64,000 bases of DNA from an uncultured Candidatus Saccharibacteria bacterium. GTDB taxonomy: Bacteria; Patescibacteriota; Minisyncoccia; UBA6257; 2-01-FULL-56-20. The notes under the pieces are model-generated. The model searched no databases. It was not told the DNA's origin and saw nothing but the letters and a program-made list of their open reading frames with translations. Made by a program: the position numbers and the translations under genes. The DNA is taken from positions 6,183 through 70,182 of the forward strand of contig CAZMPQ010000001.1 of NCBI GenBank assembly GCA_964568535.1, read 5' to 3'. Below are positions 7,008 to 42,199 of this stretch, in pieces. Positions within the stretch are counted from its first letter, which is position 1; each line of letters starts with the position of its first letter.

Positions 7008-7901
7008 CATAGCATAATCCGAGATGCCACGCTCTAGATCGTACTCCGGCACGAATTCGATGAGTTCTTTTGCACGTGTCATATCGCATTCGGTATATGT
7101 TTGATAGGTCGCAGCGTATGGGTTATCGATATAGACCGGTTTCCGCGTGGTGCCCATCACGCGATTCAGCGTCGCAATGACGTCGTTGAACGTCCGCGCT
7201 TTTCCGAATCCGCAATTCACAGTACCGCTCGCACCGGCTTGCGCAGCGAGGAGATTTGCGCGAACGGCGTCCTTTACGTAGATATAATCGCGCCTCTGCT
7301 CGCCATACTTAAAAATCTTTGGGTCTCCGACTTTCATTTGCCGGGCAAGCTGATATACCATACTTGCCATTTTGCCCTTATGGCTTTCCCCGGGTCCGTA
7401 TACATTGCAATATCGCAAACCGACAACAATTGTGTCTGGGTTTCCGCCTGCGAATCGCATCGCGAACTCGTCCAGCGCTTTTTTTGACTCGCCGTACGGA
7501 TTAAGCGGAGCAAGTGGGCCGTCCTCGCGATACGGCGCCGGAACGTTCCCGTAGACTGCGGTTGACGATGCATACACGATGCGTCGGCAGCCGGCATTGA
7601 CTGCACTGGCGAAAAGCGGCTTCACCGCCTCTACGTTCACGAAGAACATCTTTTCACGGTCGGTCACAAGGGTATCCGTAATGGCTGCTTGGTGGAATAG
7701 GACATCAATGGAGCCGATCTTTTCCCAATCGATATCGTGGAATGTCGGCTGGAGTATGGGACCTCGGAACCCAGACAGTTTTTGTTCTGCATCACTCCCA
7801 GTTACTATGACGTCCCATCCTTGCGCGTCCAGCGTACGCACGAGATTAGAGCCGATGAAACCGGTCCCGCCAGTTACTAACGCTTTTTTCTTTCTTAGCA
7901 T
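6990..7901 (-). CDS. hldD: ADP-L-glycero-D-manno-heptose-6-epimerase
   Basis: Carries ALVTGGTGFIGSNLV, YASSTAVYG, YGESK, LRYCNVYGPGESHKGKMASMVYQLARQ and DYIYVKD. It is collinear with E. coli HldD over its full ~300 aa length. Confidence 0.8.
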   Translation of the reverse strand: MLRKKKALVTGGTGFIGSNLVRTLDAQGWDVIVTGSDAEQKLSGFRGPILQPTFHDIDWEKIGSIDVLFHQAAITDTLVTDREKMFFVNVEAVKPLFASAVNAGCRRIVYASSTAVYGNVPAPYREDGPLAPLNPYGESKKALDEFAMRFAGGNPDTIVVGLRYCNVYGPGESHKGKMASMVYQLARQMKVGDPKIFKYGEQRRDYIYVKDAVRANLLAAQAGASGTVNCGFGKARTFNDVIATLNRVMGTTRKPVYIDNPYAATYQTYTECDMTRAKELIEFVPEYDLERGISDYAMSGALS

Positions 7902-14700: not shown

Positions 14701-15636
14701 CTATCTCACCTTGAGCCATTCTGTCATCCGCTCAATGCCCATCCGCAGGTCGCATGCCGGCCGCCACGGGAGCGCGGCGAAGGTTTTTGTCATGTTCGCC
14801 TGCTGGCATCCTTTGTCGTACGCCACGGCCTTCGCGCCGCCCCACACCAGCTTGCTCCGCGAGCCGGTCAGCGTAAATGTAACGTCTACGAGCTCCTTGA
14901 GCGTCACTGCCTTACCGCACGCGGCATTCAACACTTCTCCCGCAAGCTTGCCGGCATGTTCCGCCGCCTGCATGTAGAGTTGAACGAGATCGTCTATAAA
15001 AATGAAGTCGCGGCTCACGTCGGGACTTGTGAGCGTAATGTCCTCGTTCCGCAACGCCTTGCGGACGACCGCTTCCACGAGGCGGCCCTCTTCCATCTGC
15101 GGTCCATACGGCGAGAAGATGCGAAGCGCGACCACGGGCTTTCCCGCGTTCCGCGCGACCGTTTGCCCGTAGAGCGTCATCGCGAGCTTGGTCAGTGCGT
15201 ATATTTCGAGCGGCTCGCATCGGTCGCTTTCCTTGAGCGGCGTCTCGTGCGTTCCATACTCTAAATAGCTCCCACTGTTCACGAAGAACGCGTAATCCAC
15301 GTGCTCCAACGCTTGGAACAAGCGGATAGTGTTTCCGATGTTCGCGCGAATAAGCTCATCCTCCGCCGCAGCAACGCCTTGCTTAATATTGGATGCCGCG
15401 CAGTGGAACACGCCCGACGGGTTCAGTTCGGTGAGAAGTTTTTTGAGCCGCGGGGCGTCCGTCATGTCGTCACGGACGACCGCGAGCTGCGGCAAGATGT
15501 CCGCGATGCGGTGCGTGTCCGTCGTCTCTCTTATGAGCACTGCCGCCGGCCGCCCGTCCCGCACGAGCCGATGCAGTAGATGGCTACCGATAAATCCTGC
15601 TCCGCCGGTCACGAGTACCGGCCGTTCATTCTTCAT
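14701..15636 (-). CDS. NAD-dependent epimerase/dehydratase (extended SDR)
   Basis: Carries VLVTGGAGFIGSHLLHRL and a YxxxK site (YALTK). Confidence 0.75.
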   Translation of the reverse strand: MKNERPVLVTGGAGFIGSHLLHRLVRDGRPAAVLIRETTDTHRIADILPQLAVVRDDMTDAPRLKKLLTELNPSGVFHCAASNIKQGVAAAEDELIRANIGNTIRLFQALEHVDYAFFVNSGSYLEYGTHETPLKESDRCEPLEIYALTKLAMTLYGQTVARNAGKPVVALRIFSPYGPQMEEGRLVEAVVRKALRNEDITLTSPDVSRDFIFIDDLVQLYMQAAEHAGKLAGEVLNAACGKAVTLKELVDVTFTLTGSRSKLVWGGAKAVAYDKGCQQANMTKTFAALPWRPACDLRMGIERMTEWLKVR

Positions 15637-19118: not shown

Positions 19119-20132
19119 CTAAAACAGCTTATCTTTCCACGTGCGCGGGGTCTTCGGACTCACGATCTCCAAGTCCAAGTGGTACCGAAAGGGTTTCACG
19201 CCGCGCGTCTGGATATAGACGATCATGTCGCGCAGGCCGTGCTCCAAGGTCGTTGTGGTCTTGTAGCCGAGCAACTTGCGCGCTTTTTCTGCGCTGCAGG
19301 TTGCGAGCTTCACTTCGTTCGGCCGGTCGGGCATATACACGGGCTTCAGCGGGAAATCCAGCAGCTTTGCGACGGTCTCGGCGAGCGTATTGATCGTGAT
19401 GAACTCTTCGTCCGGCCCGACGTTCACCACCTCCCCCACCACGCTCCGATCGAACGCCATTTTTTCCAGGGGGTCCACCACGTCCTGCACGAACGAAAAG
19501 CACCGTTTCTGCTCGCCGTCGCCATAGATCACCGGCTGACGGTTCTGCAACATAAGATTGATCATAATGGACGCGACGTTCCGATACGGATCGTCATACT
19601 TCTGTCGCGGGCCGATGATGTTATGGGGGACGGCGATAACATACTCGATGCCGTGCGTTTCGCAGAGGTTCCGTACCGTGAGTTCCGCAGCGTACTTCGC
19701 GATGCCGTAGGGGTCCTGCGGCTTCGGCGTCATGTCCTCCGTGAACGGAACGCGTTCCTGCGTGCCGTAACGCGCCATACTTGAACACAGCACGAACCGC
19801 TTGATCTTCTGGGCGATACCAGCGGAAAGCACCGATACGGTGATGTCGTACACATTGCGCGTCACGAGGTGCGGCGAAAAGACGCTCAATCCTTCGTATG
19901 CCGTCGCGGCGCAGTGGTAGACCACGTCAACGCCGTCCATGATGCGCGTCATCGCCGCGCGGTCGGCGCAATCCAGTGTATGGAACTCAACACCCGGCGG
20001 TACGTTGTCCAAATAGCCGCCCAAAAGATTGTCTACGCCGATCACCCGGTGCCCGCGCTCCAGGAACCGTTCAGCAAGATAACTGCCTAAAAAACCGGCC
20101 GCGCCGGTAATGAAGATGGTCTGTTTCGCCAT
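19119..20132 (-). CDS. NAD-dependent nucleotide-sugar epimerase/dehydratase (GalE/UXS-like SDR)
   Basis: Carries IFITGAAGFLGSYLAERF and YGIAK. Confidence 0.75.
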   Translation of the reverse strand: MAKQTIFITGAAGFLGSYLAERFLERGHRVIGVDNLLGGYLDNVPPGVEFHTLDCADRAAMTRIMDGVDVVYHCAATAYEGLSVFSPHLVTRNVYDITVSVLSAGIAQKIKRFVLCSSMARYGTQERVPFTEDMTPKPQDPYGIAKYAAELTVRNLCETHGIEYVIAVPHNIIGPRQKYDDPYRNVASIMINLMLQNRQPVIYGDGEQKRCFSFVQDVVDPLEKMAFDRSVVGEVVNVGPDEEFITINTLAETVAKLLDFPLKPVYMPDRPNEVKLATCSAEKARKLLGYKTTTTLEHGLRDMIVYIQTRGVKPFRYHLDLEIVSPKTPRTWKDKLF

Positions 20133-23156: not shown

Positions 23157-24202
23157 GCCGTGTGGTTCCCTGAAGATCGCAGGTGTCCGAGCATTTGCTG
23201 GGCACGATGGCGCCAGGTGTGGTGTTGCAGCACGTACTCGCGGACACGTGCCGCGCGCTTTGCACGCTCCGCGTCCATTCCCGGCGCGAGCCAATGGTCC
23301 AGAAGCGGATGTATCTCTTTTGCCGAGCTGAACGTCACGAGCGAATCCTTCGGGAAGAGGAGGTCGTGGTCCGCGCGATGGTCCACGAGCTGAAACAGCC
23401 CTGCAAGCGCGACCTCAAAGGTCCGCGCGGATACGGAGGTGAAGTGCCACGTCGAATGGATGTTGAGGAATAGTTTCGTCTTTGCATACAACTCGTTCAG
23501 CGCCGCCGTGCTCAACCGCCCGCTTTGGACAACGCGCTGTTTGAGCCCCGGGAAGTAGCGGTGCCAATACTCCAGCCCTGTGCCGCAGACGGCAACACGG
23601 TATTTTTCAGGAATGTCGGCGAGTATCTTTGCGCGCAGATAGCCGTCCCCGCTCTGCGGCGGCAAGCTGCCGGCGAAGACGATGTCGTATTCCTTTTTCG
23701 GCTCCGGCGAGAGCGGATGGAATACTTTGGGGTCGCCAGCAAGCGGGAGGTGCACCGCATCTTGCTCGCCGTAGAGGATGGTCATCCAGGACGGGAATCG
23801 GTCTATCGTGAACACCCGGTCCACGTACGCGAGCGCCGCGAGGGCGTCCTTTGCCTGCGCGCCTGCGGCGGGAGAATCCATCCAGTAGAAGATGGGTTTC
23901 TTGAGCTCTCGCGCTTCGCGGACCGCCTCGGGCAGGATGTTCGGCGCGTGTTCCAAAACAATGAGGTCCGGCTTCGCGTCGCGGACGCTCTGGAGCCAGT
24001 CGCGGCTCACTGCCCTGCGAAACACGTCTTCCGCGCCATACTGCACCTTCGGAATGCGCGTGCCGATACGCTGTATCCATCGCTGGGTCTTCGTGCCGTT
24101 ATCGTTGAAAAACGAGACGCTGTGCCCAAGCTCGCGCAGGGCATCGCCGAAGAACGCGCCGAATCCCCCATGCCAAACCGGCGTCGTATAGTGTATCTTC
24201 AT
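23153..24202 (-). CDS. CgeB-like glycosyltransferase (paralog of the 2818..3873 gene)
   Basis: Carries FEVALAGLFQLVDH...DAERAKRAARVREYVLQHHTWRHR. Confidence 0.6.
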   Translation of the reverse strand: MKIHYTTPVWHGGFGAFFGDALRELGHSVSFFNDNGTKTQRWIQRIGTRIPKVQYGAEDVFRRAVSRDWLQSVRDAKPDLIVLEHAPNILPEAVREARELKKPIFYWMDSPAAGAQAKDALAALAYVDRVFTIDRFPSWMTILYGEQDAVHLPLAGDPKVFHPLSPEPKKEYDIVFAGSLPPQSGDGYLRAKILADIPEKYRVAVCGTGLEYWHRYFPGLKQRVVQSGRLSTAALNELYAKTKLFLNIHSTWHFTSVSARTFEVALAGLFQLVDHRADHDLLFPKDSLVTFSSAKEIHPLLDHWLAPGMDAERAKRAARVREYVLQHHTWRHRAQQMLGHLRSSGNHTA

Positions 24203-24267
24203 GCACAGACAGGATAATCCAACTCTCGCCCGAATGGAACCCGTGCGCGAATTGCTGCGTGAATAGA

Positions 24268-24302
24268 CCCCGAGCGGCGTGCTACGAGCACGCCGCTCGG
24301 GG
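24268..24302. terminator. perfect 16-bp inverted repeat with a 3-nt loop (CCCCGAGCGGCGTGCT-ACG-AGCACGCCGCTCGGGG)
   Basis: Read directly from the sequence. It lies between the end of the surface-protein operon and the start of the CgeB-like gene. There is no strong T-tract, so it is either a stem-loop terminator or an RNA stability element. Confidence 0.4.
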
Positions 24303-24319
24303 CGTTTACCGTATCGCTC

Positions 24320-24397
24320 TTACTGGGACGTAGAACTCGGAGCTGGAGCCGAAGGAGTTGAGGTAACGTGGATGGGAGGTGGAAGGGGTGGTAGTCC
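24320..24397 (-). pseudogene. relic 3' end of a third small-partner gene (it encodes ...GLPPLPPPIHVTSTPSAPAPSSTSQ*)
   Basis: The minus-strand translation matches the C-terminal tail of the 26134..27117 protein (PPPPPPIHVTSTPPAPAQSSTSQ*). No corresponding N-terminal or central domain lies upstream of it. Confidence 0.55.
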
Positions 24398-24404
24398 CTC
24401 TTTA

Positions 24405-24752
24405 TTAGAATAAAGTCGGGTGAGCAAACATTTGAGAGGCACCATACATAAAAAAAGCTGTCGATACGAATACCCCCAAAGAAAAGAAGAGAAAAGAAAA
24501 GAAGAGAAAAGAAGAGCCCAATCTTCTTAGCTGTTCTCGAAATCGCTTTATGAAGAAGTTCACCAAGAAAAATGGTAAAGAAAAAACACTGATGATTTCC
24601 AAGATTAGTGAATAAATGTTTTCAAATGGAAAGAGCGCCTTTGGCAAGCTTGGGAATACATCTAACGAATAGGGAATCGTAAAAACTAACAATCCGACTA
24701 CTATGCCACCTAAAAGATTTCCGACATAAAACAAATTTAACTTTTTTTTCAT
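24405..24752 (-). CDS. hypothetical small Phe-rich membrane protein in a low-GC (~30%) patch
   Basis: A 115-aa ORF with three or four hydrophobic segments. It begins MKKKLNLFYVGNLLGGIVVGLL, similar to the partner-protein signal anchors. The local GC content is far below the window average. Confidence 0.35.
   Translation of the reverse strand: MKKKLNLFYVGNLLGGIVVGLLVFTIPYSLDVFPSLPKALFPFENIYSLILEIISVFSLPFFLVNFFIKRFREQLRRLGSSFLFFSFLFFSLGVFVSTAFFMYGASQMFAHPTLF
24481..24516. repeat. simple purine-rich repeat, roughly (GAAAAGAAGA)x3.5
   Basis: The sequence reads gaaaagaagagaaaagaaaagaagagaaaagaagag. Confidence 0.6.
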
Positions 24753-24781
24753 GAATTTTTGATATTATTAACAAGATTATA

Positions 24782-26137
24782 TCACCATTTGATTATCCCT
24801 TTAATTCTATAAGGGTCGAAGATGGGGTTTAGCTTAGAACTCCAAAGCATTTCAAAATCGCTTATATCTTGGGTACCCAAGTCAGTCTTGGGCGATACAA
24901 GACCGCAAGTGCTAGTGGAATTATCCATAATATTATTTCCTGTACTATGCGCCAGACCGAGTGCGTGCCCAAGCTCATGCGTAATAGTGCATTGTTTCAT
25001 TGAATTCGTATAAGGATCCATATAGTAAGTATTGAAAAGGATATGAGGTTGGTTTGGTGTGGTTGTAGGAACCCATAATCCTGCTTTTCCCATCCATTGA
25101 CCAACGGTCGAGCTGACGACGTCTACATATATATCCCAATCTGAACCAGATGTAGAGGTTGATTTCTTGAGATTCACATAGCTTGCAGTCGCGTCATTCC
25201 AAGTAATGATTGCGTTTAACATTTGCGCATCATATGGCGTAGAACTGCCTATTCTCATGATATATGGCGATGTGCTTGTATTGACGCCCGGCGGCGACCA
25301 CTCGGTATTGTCAGGACGTGACAAGAACGCCGTGTAATAATTGTCCGCATCAATATAGTCAGAAATCTTCGCACCTGTTCCTGAAGCGTTCTGCGTGGCA
25401 TGCCAGGGTCCGGCGTTCTCCGTAGAACTGTTGGCATCATCCAGCGGATACCACCCACCCCAGAAGTTCAATCTCATTGTGGAGGTCGGACTGCCAGTCT
25501 TCCAAGCACTGCTTGTGCTGTTGTTGTATATCGTGCTCGACGCCACCGTCACCGTCCCGCCGGTAATATACAGGCCGTAATCGTTATCGTGTATCGCTGA
25601 TTCCGTTACCGTCGTCGCGCCTCCCGTGCTGTATATCCCGTAGTCCGAAGCATAGGAGATGTCGGTATATCTCGTATTGAGCGTGCCGCCAGTAACGTAC
25701 ACGGTACTGCCTGCTGTGTTTCCGCCGTATCTCACGACGGTTCCTGCGAGAGTCGTGCTCGCGCCGGAGGTAATTTGAATATTTCCCCAATCCCCTGCGG
25801 CTCCCGTTGAAGTTCCATCTCCATTCAGATCCCCTCCCACGCTGTCGTCTTTGAAGGAGGTGAAATATACGAGGGTAGGGCTCAGTGCTCCTCCTTTCAC
25901 ATCAAGCTCTCCGTTCACGATGAGGGAGGTAGATGGTTTGAACTTGATGATGGTGCCGGGTTCAATGGTGATAGTCTTGCCTGCATTGATGGTGACGGTT
26001 GAGGAGACGATATATGGGCCTTCGGCTTTGGACCAGGTGGTGGAGGTTGCGATGGAGCCGGAGAGGGTGCTGGATGGCTTCGCCACGAGTGGTATGCATA
26101 CAAGCATACCACTTTGTTCTATGCGCTCACAGCTCAC
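24782..26137 (-). CDS. secreted parallel beta-helix plus metzincin zinc-metallopeptidase domain protein (a truncated paralog of the 1058-aa protein, lacking the LamG domains)
   Basis: It is about 85-95% identical to the C-terminal ~440 aa of the 27152..30328 gene product. It carries HELGHALGLAHS. An ATGA overlap couples it to the upstream partner gene. Confidence 0.6.
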   Translation of the reverse strand: MSCERIEQSGMLVCIPLVAKPSSTLSGSIATSTTWSKAEGPYIVSSTVTINAGKTITIEPGTIIKFKPSTSLIVNGELDVKGGALSPTLVYFTSFKDDSVGGDLNGDGTSTGAAGDWGNIQITSGASTTLAGTVVRYGGNTAGSTVYVTGGTLNTRYTDISYASDYGIYSTGGATTVTESAIHDNDYGLYITGGTVTVASSTIYNNSTSSAWKTGSPTSTMRLNFWGGWYPLDDANSSTENAGPWHATQNASGTGAKISDYIDADNYYTAFLSRPDNTEWSPPGVNTSTSPYIMRIGSSTPYDAQMLNAIITWNDATASYVNLKKSTSTSGSDWDIYVDVVSSTVGQWMGKAGLWVPTTTPNQPHILFNTYYMDPYTNSMKQCTITHELGHALGLAHSTGNNIMDNSTSTCGLVSPKTDLGTQDISDFEMLWSSKLNPIFDPYRIKGIIKW

Positions 26138-27117
26138 TGACTGGTTGATGACTGAGCAGGTGCTGGAGGCGTTGAGGTAACGTGGATAGGAGGCGGAGGG
26201 GGCGGAGTTGGTGGTTGGGGTGGAGGCGGATAAAATGGGGCGCAGTCGGGGTCTTGGGCGTCGGTGAGGTTGTCGAGGTCGTTGTCTTTGTTGTCACGAC
26301 AATTCACCTGATGGTCCTCTCGATAATATGGCCGGCAGTTGGGGTCGCCCTGATCGACAAGTCTATCTCCGTCATTATCTATGCCGTCGCGACAACTACT
26401 CCCTGAAGTTTCTGTTGTATCTTGTGGTAGTGGCGGTGGCGGCAATGTCTCTGGCACAGGACGGGGAGGTATGAGTTCAGCAAATTTATTGTGGACTGCC
26501 TGTTTCTCAGCTTGGGAGAGCGACTGGAATAAATTAGCGGCAGATTCGCCTGTTGTGCGTCCGTCAAATGGTATCTCATTCGGATACGCATTGAGTAGTT
26601 CGTATGTCCGCGCGTGTCGTAAAACGAGTTCTCTTAATTGCTCCTTACTCAAGTTGGCGTGCTCACTCACTACGGTCTTAGTCGCCGGATGAAAACCTAC
26701 AAAATACCATGGGCCAGCTTCATCGGGGAGATGAGTAGCTCCAAACAGATACGTTGTGCCGGGTGCAAGTTTATCCCCTTTTGTAGAATCCAAGCTCACA
26801 ACAATCCTATCCTCGGCAATACCTTTGATATTGTAAATAACCTCAACGTCATATTGTGTTCTTGATAAACCCAGTGAGTTATCGCTTCTTCCTGCTTCTG
26901 CAAGCACCTTGCCGGCAAATACATTTTGGTAATAACCAACCAACCTGCGGTTGTTATTGAAGTCAGTTGCCCACGTCGCGGCAATGCCGGATTCTCCCAT
27001 GTTCTTTACGCCTGAGTCAGTTGGTGTCTGAAAACCAACCTGCTGTACACCCCTCATCCCGAGATAGATTGCACCGAAAATCAAGATACTTCCAACGATA
27101 AATAGTCGTTTCTTCAT
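26134..27117 (-). CDS. secreted partner protein: signal anchor, a conserved domain of unknown function, two Cys-bracketed Asp-rich (TSP3-like calcium-binding) repeats, and a poly-proline C-terminal tail
   Basis: Starts MKKRLFIVGSILIFGAIYLG. Carries CRDGIDNDGDRLVDQGDPNC and CRDNKDNDLDNLTDAQDPDC, and ends PPPPQPPTPPPPPPIHVTSTPPAPAQSSTSQ. It is a paralog of the 38053..39054 gene. Confidence 0.6.
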   Translation of the reverse strand: MKKRLFIVGSILIFGAIYLGMRGVQQVGFQTPTDSGVKNMGESGIAATWATDFNNNRRLVGYYQNVFAGKVLAEAGRSDNSLGLSRTQYDVEVIYNIKGIAEDRIVVSLDSTKGDKLAPGTTYLFGATHLPDEAGPWYFVGFHPATKTVVSEHANLSKEQLRELVLRHARTYELLNAYPNEIPFDGRTTGESAANLFQSLSQAEKQAVHNKFAELIPPRPVPETLPPPPLPQDTTETSGSSCRDGIDNDGDRLVDQGDPNCRPYYREDHQVNCRDNKDNDLDNLTDAQDPDCAPFYPPPPQPPTPPPPPPIHVTSTPPAPAQSSTSQ

Positions 27118-27151
27118 GGTGATGGTTAATTATGTGATGACCCTATGGAAC

Positions 27152-30100
27152 TTATTGCCATTGAATGATGTTTTTCAATCGGTGCGGATCGAAAATAGGG
27201 TGCAGAGCGGGGGTCCAAAGCAATCGAAAATCGCTTATGTCTTGGGCACTTAGATTGGTCTGCGACGATCCTATCTGGCACGTCTGGTCCATTAAGTTGC
27301 CTTCCGGACTATGCGCCAATCCCAAAGCATGCCCGAGCTCGTGGGTGGTTACGCACTGCTTATTCATCTCGACGCCCATTCGCGCGGTATTGAAGTAAAT
27401 GTGAGCGATGCTAGTTGAAGACGGGATATAAAACCATGCCCAACCTCGAGGAACATAAAGCCCGGCCCAATCCAGTGTAGAACTCGTAATATCTGCCGCG
27501 GCCACATCCCACTGCGAGTTCGGGTACGAACTTGCCTTCTCTAAGTTAATATAACCTACGGTTGTATCATTCCAAGTATCAATGCCATCCTCCAATTGCG
27601 TCTGATATTGAGTAGAACTGCCCACCCGCATCACGTATGTTGATGTATTAGTGTAAACAGCTAACGGCGACCAAGTGTTAACATTAGGATGAGACAAATA
27701 CGCGGTGTAGTAATTGTCCGCGTCTATGTAATCGGATATTTTCGCTCCAGTCCCACTAGTATTCTGCGTAGCGTGCCACGGTCCAGCATTTTCCGTCGAG
27801 GTGTTCTTTTCGCTTGAGCCATCATAAGTATCGTCGAGCGGATACCATCCACCCCAGAAGTTCCATTTCATTGTGGAGGTCGGGCTGCCGGTTTTCCAAG
27901 CACTGCTTGTCGCGTTGTTATATATCGTGCTCGATGCCACCGTCACCGTCCCACCGGTAATATACAGACCGTAATCGTTGTCATGTATCGCTGATTCCGT
28001 TACCGTCGTTGCCCCTCCTGTGCTGTATATGCCGTAGTCCGAGGAGTAGGAGATATCGGTATATCGGGCGTTCAGCGTGCCTCCAGTCACGTAGATGGTA
28101 CTACTTGCAGTGCTTCCACCATAGCGGACAACGCTTCCTGCGATGGTAGTACTCGCCCCCGAGTTGATTTGGATATGCCCCCAATCCCCTGCCACCGGCG
28201 CTGTCGCTCCTCCGTCTCCATTCGTATCCCCACCCACACTGTCATCCTTGTATGACGTGAAATATACGAGCGTGGAGCTCAGTGCTCCTCCCTGCACATC
28301 AAGCTCTCCGTTCACGATGAGGGAGGTAGAGGGTTTGAACTTGATGATGGTGCCGGGTTCAATGGTGATAGTCTTGCCTGCATTGATGGTGACGGTTGAG
28401 GAGACGATATATGGGCCTTCGGCTTTGGACCAGGTGGTGCTGGTTGCGATGGTACCGGAGAGGAGGCCTCCGCAGCCGGAGGATTGGGCGCAGACGCGCC
28501 TGCCCTGACTACTGTTCCAGAGCTTCGTCACTTCGCCTGCGGTCAATGCGCGGTTCAGGACCACCACCTCGTCAATCATAGCAGAGATCTTTCCGTAACC
28601 GCCGCCTGAGGGGTAGCCGCCGTGGGCGCCGATGCCGGTGCCGGTGTCTACCGCCGAGGTGCCGTTCCCGGAGCCAGCGGCTGCCTCGGCCTTGAGGTCG
28701 TTCTGCACATAGAGGCGGAGGCTCGTGCCGTCGAAGGTGCAGGCGACGTGGTACCAGGTGGAAGTTGCGAGGCCGTTCCCGCCATTCGTCCAGGAGGCGG
28801 TCTCGTTCGCGGCGCCCCAGCGATTCCGTTGGCAATAAAGTGTCCTCGTGCTCCCGCCGGTATATTCAATGCCGTAGGCAACATCAGTGCCGCTGTCCAC
28901 GACGGAGACGATTTCCTGGTCTCCGGAGGCGATGCTGGCGAACTTGACCCAGGCCGCGAGAGACATGGCGCCCCCGGAGATACCGAGATTCTCCGACGCG
29001 TAAAGATACTTCGTCGTGTTGTCCGTCCCGAAGTCCGCGGCAGTGCCGAGCACGCCGGTTCCCGTTGCGGCGGGGCCGTAGTTCGTCAGGGTGTAGTGAT
29101 TGCCGCTCGCGTCGGCGGCGAAGTGATGGTCAGTATGGTAGAGCGCTCGGATCGCGCCGTCGGTGATCTGGAGATACGGCGATGGGTCCGTTTCCACCGT
29201 GAAATCAAATACATCCGCCGTCCCGAATTGCGTCCAGGAGGATGTGGCGAAAGTCACAGTGTCCTGCGCCCGCGCGCGCCAGTACCAGGACCCGGGCGTG
29301 ATAGAGGAAACGGTCGTTGACGCCTGTGCGCCAGGCGCGACTGGGGAGCTTGTCTGCGTCATTGGGCCGGCGAACGAGGTGCTCGTTGCGAGCTCCACCT
29401 GGACTATGAGCTGGTTCGTGGATGAGGAGTTCGGGATAGCCTTGAGCACGACGCTCGTCTCCGCCGTCGTTGCTCCTTCGGCGAGCGAGGTCGTACCGTT
29501 AGACTTGAACTGGAGGAGATCGCCGATGCTCGGCGGCGTGGACGACGTGCAGCCTACCGTAACGCAAATCGTATCCCCCGAACCGCTGTTCCAGAGCGCA
29601 TTGCGAGTAGAGGTGGAGATGCGGGTGTTCATGAAAAAGAGCTCATCGATATGGAAGTCACCGAGTGCAGCCGCGTTGCATACGGGATTCACGTTCGCCG
29701 AGCGGCCGTTCACGCAGATATCCGTCGTGAAGTTCGTCGTGTCACTGTCGCTCCCCGAGGTCACGATGGTGTTGTTCACATACCACTCTACCGAGCTTCC
29801 CGTACGGGTCAGGAGATGCCACTGCCAAGCGCCGACTGGCGGGCTGGAGGTGGTGTATTGCATCTCGCAGGGCGGCGTACCGTCCACGAACTCCAGGACG
29901 CCTGCGGCACAGGCCTGCGCACGGCTTATCTGTTCGATGCTGTCAGCTCCCGCACTACGGCGGCTGATCACGGCATCATCGTCCAGGGTCGCTTGTGCAT
30001 TAATCCAGAAACCGATGCTGAAATCACTGGAGAGGTCCATAGCGCTGGACGAGGCTCGGAACCAGCCGGTTCCCTGAGTGTCGCCGGCGTTGCCGAACCA

Positions 30101-30328
30101 ACCGGTCACGTAGGCGGTGCCGCTTGCGGTGAGGTTCCTACCGTTTCCTGAGGAATCGCTTGCATCCTCAAAGTGGTAGAGGGCGGTGACGGAGCTTGAG
30201 GGGATGTATACAGTGGCGGAGGCGGGGTGGGGGAAGAAAAACGCCGCCAAGATGGCGACGGTAGGGACGGCGAGGACAGCGGCGGACGTTATTCCACCGA
30301 ACGGAACGACCCTGGCGTTCCTGAACAT
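27152..30328 (-). CDS. very large secreted surface protein: signal peptide, two LamG_3 (concanavalin A-like) domains, an Ig/FN3-like region, a parallel beta-helix and a C-terminal metzincin (M10-like) catalytic domain
   Basis: Starts MFRNARVVP followed by a hydrophobic helix. The LamG_3 domain ends are ALYHFEDASDSSGNG...IDELFFMNTRISTSTRNALWNSG and ALYHTDHHFAADASGNH...IDEVVVLNRALTAGEVTKLWNSS. The beta-helix repeats include TGGATTVTESAIHDNDYGLYITGG. The zinc motif is THELGHALGLAHS, and the conserved C-terminus is FDPHRLKNIIQWQ. Confidence 0.75.
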   Translation of the reverse strand: MFRNARVVPFGGITSAAVLAVPTVAILAAFFFPHPASATVYIPSSSVTALYHFEDASDSSGNGRNLTASGTAYVTGWFGNAGDTQGTGWFRASSSAMDLSSDFSIGFWINAQATLDDDAVISRRSAGADSIEQISRAQACAAGVLEFVDGTPPCEMQYTTSSPPVGAWQWHLLTRTGSSVEWYVNNTIVTSGSDSDTTNFTTDICVNGRSANVNPVCNAAALGDFHIDELFFMNTRISTSTRNALWNSGSGDTICVTVGCTSSTPPSIGDLLQFKSNGTTSLAEGATTAETSVVLKAIPNSSSTNQLIVQVELATSTSFAGPMTQTSSPVAPGAQASTTVSSITPGSWYWRARAQDTVTFATSSWTQFGTADVFDFTVETDPSPYLQITDGAIRALYHTDHHFAADASGNHYTLTNYGPAATGTGVLGTAADFGTDNTTKYLYASENLGISGGAMSLAAWVKFASIASGDQEIVSVVDSGTDVAYGIEYTGGSTRTLYCQRNRWGAANETASWTNGGNGLATSTWYHVACTFDGTSLRLYVQNDLKAEAAAGSGNGTSAVDTGTGIGAHGGYPSGGGYGKISAMIDEVVVLNRALTAGEVTKLWNSSQGRRVCAQSSGCGGLLSGTIATSTTWSKAEGPYIVSSTVTINAGKTITIEPGTIIKFKPSTSLIVNGELDVQGGALSSTLVYFTSYKDDSVGGDTNGDGGATAPVAGDWGHIQINSGASTTIAGSVVRYGGSTASSTIYVTGGTLNARYTDISYSSDYGIYSTGGATTVTESAIHDNDYGLYITGGTVTVASSTIYNNATSSAWKTGSPTSTMKWNFWGGWYPLDDTYDGSSEKNTSTENAGPWHATQNTSGTGAKISDYIDADNYYTAYLSHPNVNTWSPLAVYTNTSTYVMRVGSSTQYQTQLEDGIDTWNDTTVGYINLEKASSYPNSQWDVAAADITSSTLDWAGLYVPRGWAWFYIPSSTSIAHIYFNTARMGVEMNKQCVTTHELGHALGLAHSPEGNLMDQTCQIGSSQTNLSAQDISDFRLLWTPALHPIFDPHRLKNIIQWQ

Positions 30329-30349
30329 GATTCGATTGTATCTCCAAAG

Positions 30350-30358
30350 CCCCCCCCC
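30350..30358. repeat. homopolymeric tract, C9 on the plus strand (G9 on the coding strand), 21 nt upstream of the ATG of the 1058-aa gene
   Basis: Read directly. On the coding strand the context is CTTGCCTCGGGGGGGGGCTTTGGAGATACAATCGAATCATG, i.e. TTGCCT, then 19 nt including G9, then TACAAT, then 6 nt, then ATG. Confidence 0.8.
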
Positions 30359-30380
30359 GAGGCAAGGAGGTTATGCACAG

Positions 30381-31655
30381 CTACTCGCCGATCACTTTGA
30401 ATTCCGGTAACGGCACAATGAACTTGCCGCCGCGGGCGAAGAATTCCTTCTCACGCTCTCTGAACTCCGGCAGAAAGTGCCACGGCAGGATGAGGAAGTA
30501 GTGCGGCGCGTCCGCGCGGGCCTGCTCTTCGGAAATGATGGGTACGCGGCTCCCAACGGTCTTCTTTCCCCACTTCTGCGGATTTCGCTCTGCGGCGAAC
30601 GGGATGTGTCCATGATCAAGCCCGTAATACTGGAGGAGTGTGTTCCCCTTTGTTGATGCGCCATATACATATACTTTCTCGCCGCGCTTTTTCGCATCTT
30701 TGATGAATTGCACCGTCTTTGCCTTCATCTCCTCAACGCGCTTTGCGAATGCGTCGTAGGCCTTCCGTTCTGAAAGCTCAAGTTTTTTCTCTTCCGCATG
30801 CAACGCTGCGATGCGCTCTTTCGCGCCTTCGGGAATATGGAGGTGCTTGCCTCCGCCTTCGTGCTTTATATACACGCGGAAGCTGCCGCCGTTCACATCG
30901 TTCAGCTCCACATCGCAAACCTCAAGCTTGTGGCGCTTCAAGAGGTGTTCCAGCGAGCGGAGTGAGTAATATTCCAGGTGTTCATGGCAGATGTTATCGA
31001 ACGCGTTCTGCGACAGCATGAGCGGCAGATAACTCATCTGGATGATGAAGATGCCATCCTCGTGCAGAAGTTTCGCCACATCGCGGACGAACGCATTCGG
31101 GTCCTCCAGGTCGTAGAACATCGCGATAGCCGTCACGATCTTCGCCTTCTTGCCCGGAAGCTCCTTGTGCCACGCGTCGTAGTTGAAGAAGTCATTGATG
31201 ACCTTGTCTGCGCTCAACTTCGTTACCGGAACGAGATTTCGCGCCGGTTCAAAGCCGACCTTCACGACCGGGTCTGTGGCGTATCCACGAAGGAGCGTCC
31301 CGTCGTTCGCGCCGATATCCAATACGTGGTCTCCCGCCTCAAGCGTCGCGAATTTTTTCGCCGAGCGTACGATGTCGTGCAGGGCGTTCGTCATCGTCTG
31401 ATTCGTACCCGACACATACCAATAGTTCCGGTACATGACCTCGTTCGGCACCGTGTGCCGGAGCTGAAGCAGTCCGCACCCGCCCTGCTTCTCGTCACAG
31501 AGAGCAAGGGTCAGCGGATATGGCTCAAGCTCTTCATGCTCCTTATCGTCCACGAACGCGGACACGTAGAGATCCCCGAGAGAGAGTATCTCTTCAAGGT
31601 TTGCACTGCCGCAGACGCGGCAGGCGGATATTTCTTTGACGCCGTTCGTGCTCAT
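30381..31655 (-). CDS. sugar C-methyltransferase (TylC3/TcaB9-like: N-terminal Zn-ribbon, class I SAM-dependent methyltransferase domain, C-terminal C-methyltransferase domain)
   Basis: Carries ACRVCGSANLEEILSLGDL, then VLDIGANDGTLL, then a C-terminal domain of about 150 aa. Confidence 0.65.
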   Translation of the reverse strand: MSTNGVKEISACRVCGSANLEEILSLGDLYVSAFVDDKEHEELEPYPLTLALCDEKQGGCGLLQLRHTVPNEVMYRNYWYVSGTNQTMTNALHDIVRSAKKFATLEAGDHVLDIGANDGTLLRGYATDPVVKVGFEPARNLVPVTKLSADKVINDFFNYDAWHKELPGKKAKIVTAIAMFYDLEDPNAFVRDVAKLLHEDGIFIIQMSYLPLMLSQNAFDNICHEHLEYYSLRSLEHLLKRHKLEVCDVELNDVNGGSFRVYIKHEGGGKHLHIPEGAKERIAALHAEEKKLELSERKAYDAFAKRVEEMKAKTVQFIKDAKKRGEKVYVYGASTKGNTLLQYYGLDHGHIPFAAERNPQKWGKKTVGSRVPIISEEQARADAPHYFLILPWHFLPEFREREKEFFARGGKFIVPLPEFKVIGE

Positions 31656-37826: not shown

Positions 37827-38052
37827 CTATTCCCCTTCTTCAGGCCCAGAGCCGCCGAAGAGCTTGCGAACGCCGGCAGTGAGCCGGAAAAAACGCGCGA
37901 GCGCCATCTGCCACAGCGAACTCCCCGCGCCGGGGTCAATGTACCCCAGGGCTTTCAATTGCTCTACAACTTCGTCACGTGAGGGATCTTGTTCGTCAGC
38001 CACGCGATGATGGTAGCAGAGGAAATGGAGGGTGTAAACGCTGACACGCCAA

Positions 38053-39054
38053 TTACTGCCCGGTTGAGGTCGGAGCCGGTGCCGGAGGCGTTGAAGTGGG
38101 CGCAGTAGGAGATGGCGCGAAGTTCTCCGGTGGGAGTGGAGCGGAAGGCGGAGGAGGTGGGGGTTGTGGCGGATAGAATTGGGCGCAGTCGGGGTCGGCG
38201 GAGTCGGTGAAACCGTCGCGATCGTTGTCGATGTTGTCTCCACAAAGGGCTGGGAGGTCTTCTCGGAGAGCCCCACCACAGTCGGGATCTGCTTTATCAA
38301 TTAGCCCATCTTTGTCGTTATCTTCTTTATCACCGCAACGACTCCAAGAATTCTCAGGTATACTATCGCGGCTTGTAGAAATGGGAGGCAAAATCTCCGG
38401 CACCGGGCGTGGAGGTATCAACTCCTGGAATTTGTCGTACACTGCTCGCTTGTTCGCTTCAAAAAGGGATTGGAAAGAGTTTATCGTCCGGCCCTTTTGA
38501 ATATCAATATCTCTCAATATCTCGTTCGGATATGCGTTGAGTAATTCATACGTCCTTGAGTGTTTTTTTACAATGTCGGTCAGTTCTTCGTTTGTAAGAC
38601 GCGAACTCTGGCTTATGGACACATGGAAGGCGTTCGGGGAACCAACGTAATACCACGGTTCTGTTTCGGCCCAGTGACGAGCGGCAAGGATATACGTGTT
38701 GCCCGGGACAAGTCGAGCGCCCTCAAATGCTTCTATATCAACTTGTATCCTACCACTCGCAGTGCCTTTGATGTTGTAAAGAACTTCTACTTCGTACTGA
38801 TAATGTGCAAGCTGACTACCTCCAGGGAGTGTTTGAGGATTGTTTCCTCTCTCTGCGAGGACTTTCGCCGCAAAGACCTCTTGGGCGTAGCCCACTAAGA
38901 CGCGCGGATTGTCGTAGTTGATTGCGTATGAAGCTGCGGGGCTAGAATTTTCTTCGTTTTGCCCATTATCAAGGGGTAATTCAGAGTTCACGGCGACATA
39001 GAAACCAACGATAACTGCTACACTGCTTACGATGATGGCTAGTTGCCTTTTCAT
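38053..39054 (-). CDS. secreted partner protein (paralog of the 26134..27117 gene): signal anchor, a conserved domain, two Cys-bracketed Asp-rich repeats and a poly-proline tail
   Basis: Starts MKRQLAIIVSSVAVIVGFYVA. Carries RTYELLNAYPNEI, CGDKEDNDKDGLIDKADPDC and CGDNIDNDRDGFTDSADPDC, and ends PPQPPPPPPSAPLPP...TPPAPAPTSTGQ. Confidence 0.6.
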   Translation of the reverse strand: MKRQLAIIVSSVAVIVGFYVAVNSELPLDNGQNEENSSPAASYAINYDNPRVLVGYAQEVFAAKVLAERGNNPQTLPGGSQLAHYQYEVEVLYNIKGTASGRIQVDIEAFEGARLVPGNTYILAARHWAETEPWYYVGSPNAFHVSISQSSRLTNEELTDIVKKHSRTYELLNAYPNEILRDIDIQKGRTINSFQSLFEANKRAVYDKFQELIPPRPVPEILPPISTSRDSIPENSWSRCGDKEDNDKDGLIDKADPDCGGALREDLPALCGDNIDNDRDGFTDSADPDCAQFYPPQPPPPPPSAPLPPENFAPSPTAPTSTPPAPAPTSTGQ

Positions 39055-39079
39055 TGCATTGTTTAATGTGTTAGGGACC

Positions 39080-42000
39080 TTACCATTGAATGACGTGCTT
39101 CATCCGGTGTGGGTCAAAGAAGTAAGACGGGCTCCAGAGAAGATTGAAATTGAATAAATCTAAAATGCCTAATGTTGTTTGGGGCTCAAGAATTCCTGGG
39201 AAGTAATCGCATGAATGACGCGCCATAATACTATCCCCGTATTCAGTGTGCGATAAACCTAACGCATGACCAATCTCATGGGTTGCAACACATTGTTGCG
39301 AGTCTGAGTAAGAATTCATTCCATTTGTGTTGAATATAATGTGAGCGGTACTCGTAACAAATGGATACCACAATCCCGCCCACGATGAGGTGTCTACTGT
39401 GATATCAGCCACGTATATATCCCAGGTATCACTCGATGACGCACTTGCATTGACGACCATCACATAGCCCGATGACGAAGCGTTCCATGTGCTCATACCA
39501 TCAATAAGTTCTGATTGGTATTGCGTAGAGCTTCCCACTCTCATTTTCAGAGTACTAGAATTCACTCCAGGCGGAGACCATGTTGACTCACTAGGACTCG
39601 CAATAAATGCACTCATGTATGGACTAATGTCAATGTAATCCGATACGTCATCACCTGCTCCTGATGGGTTTTGACCAGAATGGTAAGGTCCTGCGTTGTC
39701 GGTAGATGTAGAGATATCATCAAGCGGAAACCATCCTCCCCAGAAGTTGTTGGTCATCGTAGATGTCGGCCCCGATGCATCGTGGAGCGCACCGTAGCCT
39801 GCAGTCGCATTGCTGAAGACGGTACTTGAAGACATCGTCACATTGTTGCCGCTCGTAACTCTTACGCCGTTGTAGTTGTCGTGTATTGAGGCGTATATGA
39901 TAGTCGTTGTTCCGGCCGTAAGGTACAAACCGTGCGTTTCTGCATAGGAGACATCGCTGTTTCTGATGTTCAGCACTCCCCCGTTGTTGTAGATATTTGC
40001 ATCACTTGCCGCATCTCCTCCGCCATATCTGACAACGCTTCCCACAAGCGTACTGCTCGCACCTGTATTGAACTTGATATGTCCCCAGTCACCTACCGCC
40101 GGCTGCGTCGTACTGTTGTTTGTGTCCCCTCCTACCGCATCATCGTGATACGACGTGAAATATACCAAGGTTGAGCTCAGGGCTCCTCCCTTCACATCAA
40201 GCTCTCCGTTCACGATGAGGGAGGTATTGGGTTTGAACTTGATGACGGTGCCGGACGCTACGGTGATTTTCACGCCGGAGGCGATGGTAGCGGTACTTGT
40301 GACGATGTATGGGGAGAGGTTGTGGGTCCAGGTGGTGCTTGCGGTGATAGTGCCGGAGAGGAGGTTCGCCGTGCCGCACCCTGCCGTCGTACACACTTCC
40401 GCACCGCTTCCGCTGTTCCAGAGCGCATTCCGAGTACTCGTGGATATCCGCGACGTGGACAGGAATAGTTCGTCAATATGCCAGCTGTGCTTGTAGTCGG
40501 CGTTCAAGCCGTTCACCTGGAGATCGGTGGAGTAGTTCGTGGTTGCGCTGTCGGTGAACGAATGTTGGCGCACGTTGTCCACGTAATAATCAACGATCGA
40601 GCCGCTGCGAAGCACTGTTACCCAGTACCACGTGGATGTCGCGAGAGAATAGGAGAAGTTCCCCTTGCAAGTCCCGTTGTGCCTGAACTCAAAGTTGTTT
40701 CCCGCGCACTGGGCGCCATACATCACCGCGTCATTGCTTGTTCCGCCCGTCGTCCTGCCGACAAGGGAAGTGTCGTTCAGGGCTTCCATCGGCTTCATCC
40801 AGAACCCAATAGAGAAGTCCCCCGAAAGGTCCATAGCGGATGAGGACACTGTCCAATATCCGGAACCCTGCGTAATGCCTGCGGTTGATAGCTTGCCCTC
40901 GGTAGATCCTGTCCCCCACGACGTGAGGTGGCGCGCGTTCCCCGAGGCGTCGGACGTGTCCTCAAAATGATACAGGCCGACAACGTTTGAAACCTCTACC
41001 CGCGGATTGGGAACGGTCTCCACCACGACGTCCACCACATTGTCTGTGCCGAATTGTCGCCAAGAGGATGTGGCGTTCGTCGCGGTATCCAGCGCTCTCC
41101 CTCGCCAATACCAGAATCCATCGGGGATGGCCGAGATGGTTGTTGTGGCATACGAGCTCGGAGTCACTGCGGTGCTTGTGCCGTGAAGTGCGTTCGTGAA
41201 CGACGTGCTCGTAGAAAGCTCAACTTGAAGCATGAGGTTGTTTGACGATGAGGAGTTCAAAAAAGCTTTGAAGAATACCGTGCTCTCCGCCGTGGTCGCG
41301 CCCTCGCTCAATGGGGTCGTGCCATCAGCTTTGAACTGCGTTGTTGAGGAGATGACGGGGATAGAGGAGGTCGCACATCCTAGTGTAGCGCATATCTCCG
41401 CCCCACTACCACTTGCCCAGAGCGCATCTTTCGTGCTCGTCGTGATGCGAGCGTTCATGAAAAAGAGTTCGTCCATAAGATAGGCGTGGTTGTACGATGA
41501 GCAACCGCCACCCGAGAGACCAAGGGCGCCGATACAGAGGTCGCTGCTGATATTTCCCGTCTCGCTGTCGGTGAACGGGAATACTACGCTGTTGTTCACA
41601 TAATAATCGGTGTTCGTTCCCGTTCGGGCGATGAGGAACCAGTACCAGGTGTTCGTCGAGAGCGTGTATGCCGAAGTATGGCACGTGTTGTTGTGCTTGA
41701 ACTCAACGTGGCTCCCCGCGCATGTATTCCCATAATACACGCCTTCGCGGGAAGAACCGGATATCCGATCAATGAACGGCGTGTCGTTCAGAGATACCTG
41801 TGGGTATATCCAGAATCCGATAGTGAAGTCGCCCGACAGATCCATAACTGATGACGATGCCCGGAGGAATGCGCCGCTCGCGAAGTTTGCCGCATTGGAC
41901 AGCGTACCAGTTGTGAACGTGGTCCCGGAAGCGTTTACGAGGTCGTGTCGGTTCGCCGATGACGTAACGGAGTCTGTCAGGTTCTCCATGTGGTAGAGGG

Positions 42001-42139
42001 CGGTGATGTTGGGGACGTACACGGCGGCGGAGGCGAAGCTTGGAAACAAAAACGCCACCAGAGTGGCGGCGAGGAACGCGGTGGAGAGAGCAACAAGCGT
42101 TGTTCTTTGTGACGGAACGACCCTGGCGTTCCTGAACAT
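39080..42139 (-). CDS. very large secreted surface protein with the same LamG, LamG, Ig/FN3-like, beta-helix and metzincin architecture (paralog of the 27152..30328 gene)
   Basis: I chose the start at the conserved MFRNARVVP; the ORF extends to 42199 across the poly-G tract. Carries ALYHMENLTDSVTSSANRHDL...MDELFFMNARITTSTKDALWASG, ATHEIGHALGLSH, DSIMARH (the Met-turn) and FDPHRMKHVIQW. Confidence 0.75.
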   Translation of the reverse strand: MFRNARVVPSQRTTLVALSTAFLAATLVAFLFPSFASAAVYVPNITALYHMENLTDSVTSSANRHDLVNASGTTFTTGTLSNAANFASGAFLRASSSVMDLSGDFTIGFWIYPQVSLNDTPFIDRISGSSREGVYYGNTCAGSHVEFKHNNTCHTSAYTLSTNTWYWFLIARTGTNTDYYVNNSVVFPFTDSETGNISSDLCIGALGLSGGGCSSYNHAYLMDELFFMNARITTSTKDALWASGSGAEICATLGCATSSIPVISSTTQFKADGTTPLSEGATTAESTVFFKAFLNSSSSNNLMLQVELSTSTSFTNALHGTSTAVTPSSYATTTISAIPDGFWYWRGRALDTATNATSSWRQFGTDNVVDVVVETVPNPRVEVSNVVGLYHFEDTSDASGNARHLTSWGTGSTEGKLSTAGITQGSGYWTVSSSAMDLSGDFSIGFWMKPMEALNDTSLVGRTTGGTSNDAVMYGAQCAGNNFEFRHNGTCKGNFSYSLATSTWYWVTVLRSGSIVDYYVDNVRQHSFTDSATTNYSTDLQVNGLNADYKHSWHIDELFLSTSRISTSTRNALWNSGSGAEVCTTAGCGTANLLSGTITASTTWTHNLSPYIVTSTATIASGVKITVASGTVIKFKPNTSLIVNGELDVKGGALSSTLVYFTSYHDDAVGGDTNNSTTQPAVGDWGHIKFNTGASSTLVGSVVRYGGGDAASDANIYNNGGVLNIRNSDVSYAETHGLYLTAGTTTIIYASIHDNYNGVRVTSGNNVTMSSSTVFSNATAGYGALHDASGPTSTMTNNFWGGWFPLDDISTSTDNAGPYHSGQNPSGAGDDVSDYIDISPYMSAFIASPSESTWSPPGVNSSTLKMRVGSSTQYQSELIDGMSTWNASSSGYVMVVNASASSSDTWDIYVADITVDTSSWAGLWYPFVTSTAHIIFNTNGMNSYSDSQQCVATHEIGHALGLSHTEYGDSIMARHSCDYFPGILEPQTTLGILDLFNFNLLWSPSYFFDPHRMKHVIQW

Positions 42140-42165
42140 GATGATTGAACGATACCACGGAGGAA

Positions 42166-42177
42166 CCCCCCCCCCCC
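42166..42177. repeat. homopolymeric tract, C12 on the plus strand (G12 on the coding strand), 26 nt upstream of the conserved start of the 1039-aa gene
   Basis: Read directly. On the coding strand the context is GTGCGGGGGGGGGGGGTTCCTCCGTGGTATCGTTCAATCATCATG. With 12 G the tract is in frame with an upstream ATG at 42199. Confidence 0.8.
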
Positions 42178-42199
42178 GCACAAGCGGGGATGTGCACAA

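Follow-up and report, generated by a model that had tools for sequence, protein, structure and literature searches.

The window analysed here (the whole stretch of DNA, 64 kb long, whose positions serve as coordinates below) derives from an organism that we identify, judging by its sequence, as a Candidatus Parcubacteria bacterium of the Candidate Phyla Radiation (CPR); the RNase Y encoded in the window shares a 90%-identity cluster with a protein that carries the name 'Candidatus Parcubacteria bacterium'. Positions 1-48 kb hold a co-directional glycan-biosynthesis supercluster in which two cassettes are embedded. Each cassette begins with a gene for a large protein, i.e. gene A (27152..30328, minus strand, 1058 aa) and its paralogue gene B (39080..42139, minus strand, 1019 aa from the ATG at 42139), and each of these genes is preceded by a long run of G on the coding strand. 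A third such run was found in locus L004 of an independent NCBI metagenome-assembled genome (GCA_964632585.1). We refer to the three regions as copy A (30329..30380), copy B (~42140..42199) and copy L004.

In copy A, the minus strand between the TAG stop of the upstream gene (30383..30381) and the ATG at 30328 reads CTGTGCATAACCTCCTTGCCTC-G9-CTTTGGAGATACAATCGAATC. The G9 tract (30350..30358, C9 on the plus strand) is preceded by CTGTGCATAACCTCC, the -35-like hexamer TTGCCT (30360..30365, four of six matches to TTGACA) and a single C, and it is followed by CTTTGGAGA, the -10-like hexamer TACAAT (30335..30340) and CGAATC, after which the ATG begins. The two hexamers are separated by 19 nt. Because TACAAT ends 6 nt before the ATG, the transcript is predicted to start on the A of the ATG and to be leaderless. 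This layout is exactly the one given in a first-pass annotation of the window, which had read it as a sigma70-like promoter and had suggested phase variation by slippage in the tract. In addition, a box that is conserved between the copies, TGTGCATAACCTC in copy A (30367..30379, minus strand), begins 21 nt ahead of the tract.

Copy B occupies the 60-nt gap between a gene for a GDP-sugar epimerase and gene B. Here, the tract is G12 (42166..42177, minus strand), and the box, TGTGCACATCCCC (42186..42198, minus strand), again begins 21 nt ahead of it. The -10-like element, TGgTATCGT (42149..42157, minus strand), is TG-extended and lies 9 nt before the ATG; the sole -35-like hexamer, TTGTGC (42183..42178), lies 23 nt 5' of this element. 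Copy L004 was found via homologues of the partner genes that follow the large genes in both cassettes. The gene order in L004 is C-methyltransferase, large protein with laminin G (LamG) domain, partner, and the intergenic sequence before the large gene reads TTATGCACATCCCCGCCTAGCC-G8-TACTGTCCGTGATACGCTCATCGC-ATG. The G8 tract (4777..4784 of L004) is the only G/C run of at least 7 across this 9.3-kb locus, and the -10-like element, TGaTACGCT, is TG-extended as in copy B.

The anatomy shared by the three copies can be read directly from their alignment: a box with the consensus TGTGCAYAWCCYC, the poly-G tract, 9-12 nt, a TAnnnT element, 6-9 nt and the ATG. The distance from the start of the box to the start of the tract is 21 nt in all three copies, while the tract has a length of 9 (A), 12 (B) or 8 (L004). 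The tract is followed after 9, 11 and 12 nt, respectively, by the -10-like element, and this element by the ATG after 6, 9 and 6 nt, so that the distance from box start to -10-like element is 39, 44 and 41 nt. Exact matches to the full box consensus occur within the window at A and B only. The box of L004 fits the consensus from TGCA onward (it reads TATGCA), and the core TGCAYAWCCYC matches L004 and no other locus that we fetched.

The sequences around the tracts have diverged considerably. Over the 22 nt 5' of the tract, identity is 55% between A and B, 45% between A and L004 and 77% between B and L004, and the part 3' of the tract is barely alignable. Nevertheless, the poly-G is uninterrupted in all three copies, and because this is so in copies whose flanks are only 45-77% identical, we read the homopolymer as selected. 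Under neutrality, the chance that eight aligned sites stay identical is ~0.002-0.008 per pair (0.45^8 to 0.55^8) at a flank identity near 0.5. In total, the homopolymer appears to be selected while its length appears to be evolutionarily labile.

The tracts also stand out from the background of the window. G/C runs in the window number 52 of length 5, five of length 6, none of length 7 or 8, one of length 9 and one of length 12, i.e. the only two runs of at least 7 in 64 kb are the G9 and the G12, which lie at equivalent positions ahead of two paralogues, and the distribution otherwise ends at 6. Each further base multiplies the number of runs by 0.18, and extrapolation of this empirical decay gives 0.05 expected runs of at least 9 and 3e-4 expected runs of at least 12 per 64 kb. 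The first-pass annotation had called the G9 very unusual for a genome with 62% GC; the GC content measured for the window is 56.5%, and the claim of rarity stands more firmly than it was made. A third-order Markov simulation was more permissive and gave a run of at least 9 in 17% of simulated windows; the location of the long runs is stronger evidence than their rarity. In ~73 kb of further loci from related Parcubacteria, there was no other G/C run of at least 8. Across all fetched loci, the sole other such run is a C8 at 1784..1791 of locus L005. This C8 lies inside a homologue of the partner gene, in a proline-rich linker, and could be a coding-region slippage site or merely a run of Pro codons. 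Finally, the G9, the G12 and the G8 of L004 all have the length, ~7-8 or more, at which G/C homopolymers are counted as hypermutable.

No Shine-Dalgarno motifs precede the genes in the window. We scanned for promoter-like sites, defined as TTGnnn-(16-18)-TAnnnT with at least 8 of 12 consensus matches and ending 4-12 nt before a start codon. Such sites were present at 6 of 44 gene starts compared to 1.5% of random positions, corresponding to a ~9-fold enrichment, and all six have a 17-nt spacer. Examples of positions with TTGnnn-17-TAnnnT ending 6-11 nt before the start are 58609..62112, 19119..20132, 14701..15636, 6990..7901 and 38010..38038. Moreover, the promoter directly 3' of the second cassette, TTTACA-17-TACCAT-6-GTG, is conserved in L009, a close relative that lacks the cassette, where its -10 element likewise ends 6 nt before the start codon; copy A has this arrangement of -10 element, 6 nt and start codon too. 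These observations suggest that leaderless mRNAs, or mRNAs with short leaders, are widespread in this Parcubacteria genome. Because Shine-Dalgarno motifs are absent and promoter-like sites are enriched at gene starts, sigma70-type promoters that are leaderless or nearly so and have 17-nt spacers appear to be the local norm; therefore, the model of the first-pass annotation is supported for copy A.

We varied the tract length of copy A in silico and scored the resulting promoter against the consensus. Out of a maximum of 12, the score was 9 with G7, 8.5 with G6 or G8 and 6 with the observed G9, in agreement with the earlier proposal that loss of two Gs would create an optimal spacer. The scores for G6-G8 equal those of the best promoter-like sites in the window. 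By this scoring, copy A is one contraction away from a strong predicted promoter with a 16-18-nt spacer, while copy B is far from this range. Two other functions of the region were considered and rejected. The GGAG of copy A is not a plausible Shine-Dalgarno motif, as the genome does not use such motifs and GGAG is absent in B and L004. Similarly, reiterative transcription from the tract would call for a -10-like element 6-8 nt 5' of the tract; there is none, and a shared -35 element would not fit.

The products of genes A and B both start with a hydrophobic segment that resembles a signal peptide and has an ASA motif. Both also contain LamG domains of the Laminin_G_3 family (two in A), a beta-helix and an HExxHxxGxxH metzincin motif, which in A is C-terminal and reads HELGHALGLAH. 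The two proteins are 45% (BLASTP) or 49% (MAFFT) identical and share the N-terminus MFRNARVVP. Both products look secreted or surface-exposed and would belong to a gene class that is typical of contingency loci. Each large gene is followed by a partner gene on the same strand. The partner in cassette A (26134..27117, minus strand, 327 aa) and its paralogue in cassette B (38053..39054, minus strand, 333 aa) are 47% identical, and neither matches a Pfam family. Cassette A also contains a truncated paralogue, gene C (24782..26137, minus strand), which comprises the beta-helix and metzincin part only; its protein and the C-terminal 440 aa of A show 70% identity. Gene C lacks a signal peptide, and the stop of the partner gene overlaps with the GTG at which C starts. 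At the nucleotide level, C and A form a mosaic, with an exact run of 108 nt followed by 60-70% identity; this pattern looks like gene conversion and could mark C as a silent donor copy.

Both cassettes are accessory. Close relatives, including L008, L009 and L010, are syntenic, with 78-83% nucleotide identity in the flanks, and have neither cassette; relatives derive from the 0.1-um fraction of Hainich groundwater. Cassette A (24203..30380, minus strand) is a 6.2-kb insertion that extends from the C-methyltransferase stop to the glycosyltransferase start, because in L008 the glycosyltransferase gene follows the methyltransferase gene after 11 nt. Likewise, cassette B (~38048..42199, minus strand) is an insertion from the epimerase stop to the conserved leaderless promoter described above, because in L009 this promoter and the sulfatase unit behind it directly follow the epimerase gene. 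As separate accessory insertions, the cassettes plausibly bring their own promoters or transcription signals. The sequence CTGTGCAT occurs only twice in the window, at 30373..30380 and at 24201..24208 (minus strand), and thereby forms an 8-bp direct repeat at both junctions of cassette A. This repeat suggests that the insertion was site-specific or mediated by microhomology. In cassette B, the counterpart is imperfect, TTGTGCAC versus GTGTCAGC. The 3' end of cassette A (24300..24800, minus strand) is an AT-rich island with 36% GC that contains a small open reading frame (ORF) for a hydrophobic protein with an internal 15-nt x 2.4 repeat (24478..24513). Behind it lies a hairpin with a perfect 14-bp stem, CCCGAGCGGCGTGC-TCGTA-GCACGCCGCTCGGG (24267..24300, minus strand), which is probably the terminator of the cassette.

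The homology between the two cassettes starts immediately past the stops of the upstream genes, which are unrelated (C-methyltransferase versus GDP-sugar epimerase). A 31-nt stretch that spans the start codon, ATCATGTTCAGGAACGCCAGGGTCGTTCCGT (30301..30331 in A, 42112..42142 in B, minus strand), is identical in both, while outside it the A and B genes are scarcely alignable by blastn. This identity could stem from a patch of gene conversion, or the 5' end of a leaderless mRNA could be constrained at the nucleotide level. The stretch, which L004 lacks, holds a 6-bp hairpin, GGAACG-N7-CGTTCC, right behind the ATG. Terminator-like hairpins are also present on the minus strand at 30242..30260 (TTTTTCTT, A) and 42053..42071 (TTTTTGTT, B). 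They have an 8-bp GC-rich stem and a T-rich tail, lie ~70-85 nt into the coding region within the signal-peptide segment, and their pairing is preserved by wobble changes. Because no such hairpin is present in L004, we do not count them as part of the conserved module; they may be a by-product of Ala/Phe codons.

With moderate confidence, we propose that the G9 is a slippage-prone contingency tract that sets the geometry of a phase-variable leaderless promoter of an accessory cassette. Each cassette would carry its own module of box, poly-G, 9-12 nt, TAnnnT, 6-9 nt and ATG, and downstream of it a gene for a secreted or surface protein of ~1050 aa with LamG, beta-helix and metzincin parts followed by the gene for a partner of ~330 aa. 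Slipped-strand mispairing at replication would change the number of Gs, and this number would set the distance and the helical phase between the upstream determinants (the -35-like hexamer and/or the box) and the -10 element. Transcription of the cassette could then switch or be graded between cells, separately for each paralogue. As the upstream partner of the -10 element, the -35 hexamer and a factor bound to the box are both kept as candidates. Slippage in the population, the activity of the promoter and the dependence of expression on tract length are the components of this model that we infer.

Several observations weigh against this proposal. The consensus promoter scan, which covered 16-18-nt spacers only, calls nothing at A, B or L004. 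By consensus, the tract does lie between -35 and -10 elements in A (TTGCCT-19-TACAAT), while the fit is poor in B (TTGTGC-23-TATCGT) and in L004 (TAGCCG-19-TACGCT). The -35 hexamer itself varies, from TTGCCT in A and TTGTGC in B to CTAGCC or TAGCCG in L004, which has no TTG. The implied spacers are 19 nt (A), 23 nt (B) and 19-20 nt (L004), none of the observed tracts gives 16-18 nt, and copy B would need five to six contractions to reach this range. Moreover, because the -10 elements of B and L004 are TG-extended, a -35 element, and hence the length of the spacer, could be dispensable. Similarly, because the genes of the region are all co-directional, read-through could express the cassettes whatever the tract length. 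Finally, the promoter rules used for Parcubacteria come from this 64-kb window alone, and the three tracts, the only ones found, share ancestry and are not independent. Altogether, the contingency-promoter reading put forward in the first-pass annotation gains from the recurrence of the tract, the surface-type genes, the local leaderless norm and the score of copy A, while its -35/-10 spacer geometry does not carry over to B and L004.

The closest parallel among known systems is found in Bordetella pertussis and B. bronchiseptica, in which fim2, fim3, fimX and fimN have a conserved 'fim box', a poly-C 'C-stretch' and a -10 element, and in which the paralogues differ in tract length (PMC1891110). 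As in Bordetella fim, the promoter region of genes for surface structures contains a G/C homopolymer, with a conserved box 5' of the tract. Also as in fim, each paralogue has its own tract length, so that independent switching would be possible, and the tract sets the distance from an upstream determinant to the -10 element. A box at a fixed upstream position that is common to paralogous genes is a fim-type feature, and because it is this box at a fixed 21 nt that is conserved, and not the -35 element, the module is closer to Bordetella fim than to a porA-type spacer. Unlike in Bordetella, no BvgA-like activator is known here, the promoter appears to be leaderless, and the host is a CPR bacterium without Shine-Dalgarno motifs. 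Moreover, the Bordetella genes code for fimbrial subunits, while the genes here code for LamG, beta-helix and metzincin proteins in mobile-looking cassettes.

In Neisseria meningitidis, porA is a contingency locus with poly-G in the promoter spacer (van der Ende 1995, cited in PMC5084427). In our copies, the -35/tract/-10 geometry fits A alone and not B or L004. The opc and fetA genes of N. meningitidis are likewise contingency loci, with poly-C in the promoter spacer. The likeness to porA, opc and fetA is that -35-like and -10-like hexamers of a gene for an outer-surface protein have a G/C homopolymer between them; in Neisseria, the length of the spacer decides promoter strength. Unlike here, where they are predicted, length polymorphism and its effect on expression have been established experimentally in Neisseria. 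In Mycoplasma hyorhinis, the vlp genes have poly-A in the promoter spacer, and in Helicobacter pylori, sabA has poly-T beside the -35 element. In these systems also, homopolymers in the promoter region switch or tune variable families of surface proteins, in host-dependent bacteria with small genomes; they differ from the tracts described here in that they are A/T tracts, occur in other phyla and have direct experimental evidence.

Within the CPR, diversity-generating retroelements vary large extracellular proteins. The nearest CPR precedent for repeat-based variation is a Gracilibacterium gene with a hypervariable, in-frame 9-mer repeat (PMC6851277). The tracts described here would have in common with both that large extracellular proteins vary at the level of the population; unlike the retroelements and the 9-mer repeat, which alter the protein sequence, the poly-G would alter whether the protein is made. 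Our literature searches returned no report for Patescibacteria with 'phase-variable' or for Parcubacteria with 'leaderless', while co-mentions of phase variation and Saccharibacteria exist. Promoter-located homopolymer contingency loci are known elsewhere, and the putative one described here would be new in a lineage for which the searched literature describes none.

The cassettes also resemble integron cassettes, in that co-oriented accessory units lie precisely between the genes of an array, with a short junction repeat (in A) and a palindrome at the cassette end. Unlike in integrons, we found no integrase, no attI and no attC-like R/L box structure, the cassettes apparently have their own promoter, and no exact repeat flanks cassette B. 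Only the layout is similar.

Among the alternatives to a contingency tract, we consider it unlikely, if the least so, that the module is a structured element at the cassette end. Such an element would be a hairpin or recombination site that marks the 5' boundary of a mobile cassette, or it would insulate from or terminate the transcription of the upstream glycan genes. The Gs would be retained for base pairing or for recognition by a protein, with length differences that are fixed between loci. That both cassettes are insertions relative to close relatives, that the modules of A and B begin immediately past the stops of unrelated genes, that CTGTGCAT occurs exactly at the junctions of cassette A and that the distance from box to tract is constant at 21 nt would all be in line with this explanation. 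On the other hand, in L004 ~70 nt separate the box from the stop of the upstream gene, cassette B lacks an exact repeat at its flanks, and a recombinase or integrase domain was not found in any ORF scanned across the window. Similarly, the C-rich part of the box can pair with the first Gs of the tract (CCCCGC-TTGT-GCGGGG in B, CCCCG-N6-CGGGG in L004), yet in A this stem is down to four pairs, one of them a wobble, and there are no compensatory changes. The pairing needs 4-6 Gs only, which leaves the G9 and the G12 unexplained, and no T-run follows the stem, which is therefore not a canonical intrinsic terminator. Because the folding energies of the leaders were no better than those of shuffled sequence (z = +0.27 for A, -1.31 for B), we dropped the reading of the module as a structured RNA. 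Searches of Rfam returned no family in the tract region even at E <=1, and only a tRNA-Leu in the whole window.

We regard as rather improbable that the tract is a conserved but static element of the promoter region, for instance one that shapes the DNA or binds a protein 5' of an extended -10 element, with rare length changes and no appreciable switching within the population. The TG-extended -10 elements of B and L004, which need no -35 element, would suit such a role, as would the fact that none of the three tract lengths yields an optimal spacer. However, G/C homopolymers of at least 8 are slippage-prone wherever measured in bacteria (PMC1891110, PMC5084427), the three copies have three different lengths, and the genome otherwise purges such runs, which argues for a mutational cost here too.

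A chance or neutral homopolymer, or an artefact of assembly or sequencing such as two-colour-chemistry poly-G, is very improbable and effectively refuted, for the Markov estimate of 17% apart, the run-length distribution is empty between 6 and 9, neutrality scarcely accounts for the eight-site identity, and the tract recurs at one position, within unique sequence, in three copies that have diverged and come from two independent assemblies. Least credible of all is a translational frameshift switch, in which the tract would lie within an N-terminal extension and move an upstream start in and out of frame. We read the tract as non-coding: the frame is open through the tract to the ATG in copy B alone, from a TTG at 42199 that would give a 20-aa extension, and we rejected this explanation on account of the in-frame stops in two of the three copies (a TAA 5' of the tract in A, with no start codon between it and the ATG, and a TGA between the tract and the ATG in L004) and of the signal-like N-terminus, which starts at the annotated ATG in A and B.

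A more far-reaching version of the contingency model is doubtful. In it, the module of box, poly-G and -10 element would be the front end of a portable cassette family and would combine a recombination junction and a slippage-switchable leaderless promoter in one; in cassette A, the junction has the CTGTGCAT repeat and the insertion sits exactly behind a stop codon. Cassettes for surface proteases would drop into glycan operons and be switched singly, gene C would serve as a silent donor for gene conversion, and an episymbiotic CPR lineage would thus combine phase variation with antigenic variation.

It is believed that CPR/Patescibacteria live on the surface of host cells, and they devote much of their resources to giant surface proteins, and variation of their surface is known mainly from diversity-generating retroelements. 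If the contingency model is correct, a simple-sequence switch before surface-protease cassettes would add reversible on/off variation to the CPR repertoire, and alleles of tract length would be countable in the existing groundwater metagenome reads. Moreover, the promoter survey provides sequence-level evidence for many leaderless or near-leaderless sigma70-type starts without Shine-Dalgarno motifs, which bears on gene calling and on the prediction of expression in the CPR.

Several further searches were made with the genes and the module. Exact-protein look-ups with gene A and with the upstream methyltransferase gave no match. A scan of genome contigs with the A/B alignment had as its sole match an unrelated LamG segment from Pseudomonas, and a scan of metagenomes gave one homologue on a contig that ends before the N-terminus, so that the upstream region is absent. 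With A or with a profile of five sequences as the query, word-indexed homologue searches found A itself, the paralogue and distant multidomain proteins only; even the L004 protein was missed. A pattern scan of viral contigs for box plus tract gave 0 matches. Three independent metagenome contigs with partner homologues, L005, L006 and L007, all end within the large gene and yielded no further tracts; such breaks are in line with difficulties that paralogous or variable sequence in this gene family would cause in assembly. Finally, an exhaustive profile search, with 1871 representatives at E <=1e-30, shows that giant proteins commonly contain the beta-helix and metzincin modules.

Outside the cassettes, the isoleucyl-tRNA synthetase gene (58609..62112, minus strand, 1167 aa), one of the genes with a 17-nt-spacer promoter-like site, encodes a protein in which a histidine-phosphatase or phosphoglycerate-mutase-like domain separates the two synthetase halves as an insertion at approximately residues 504-670.

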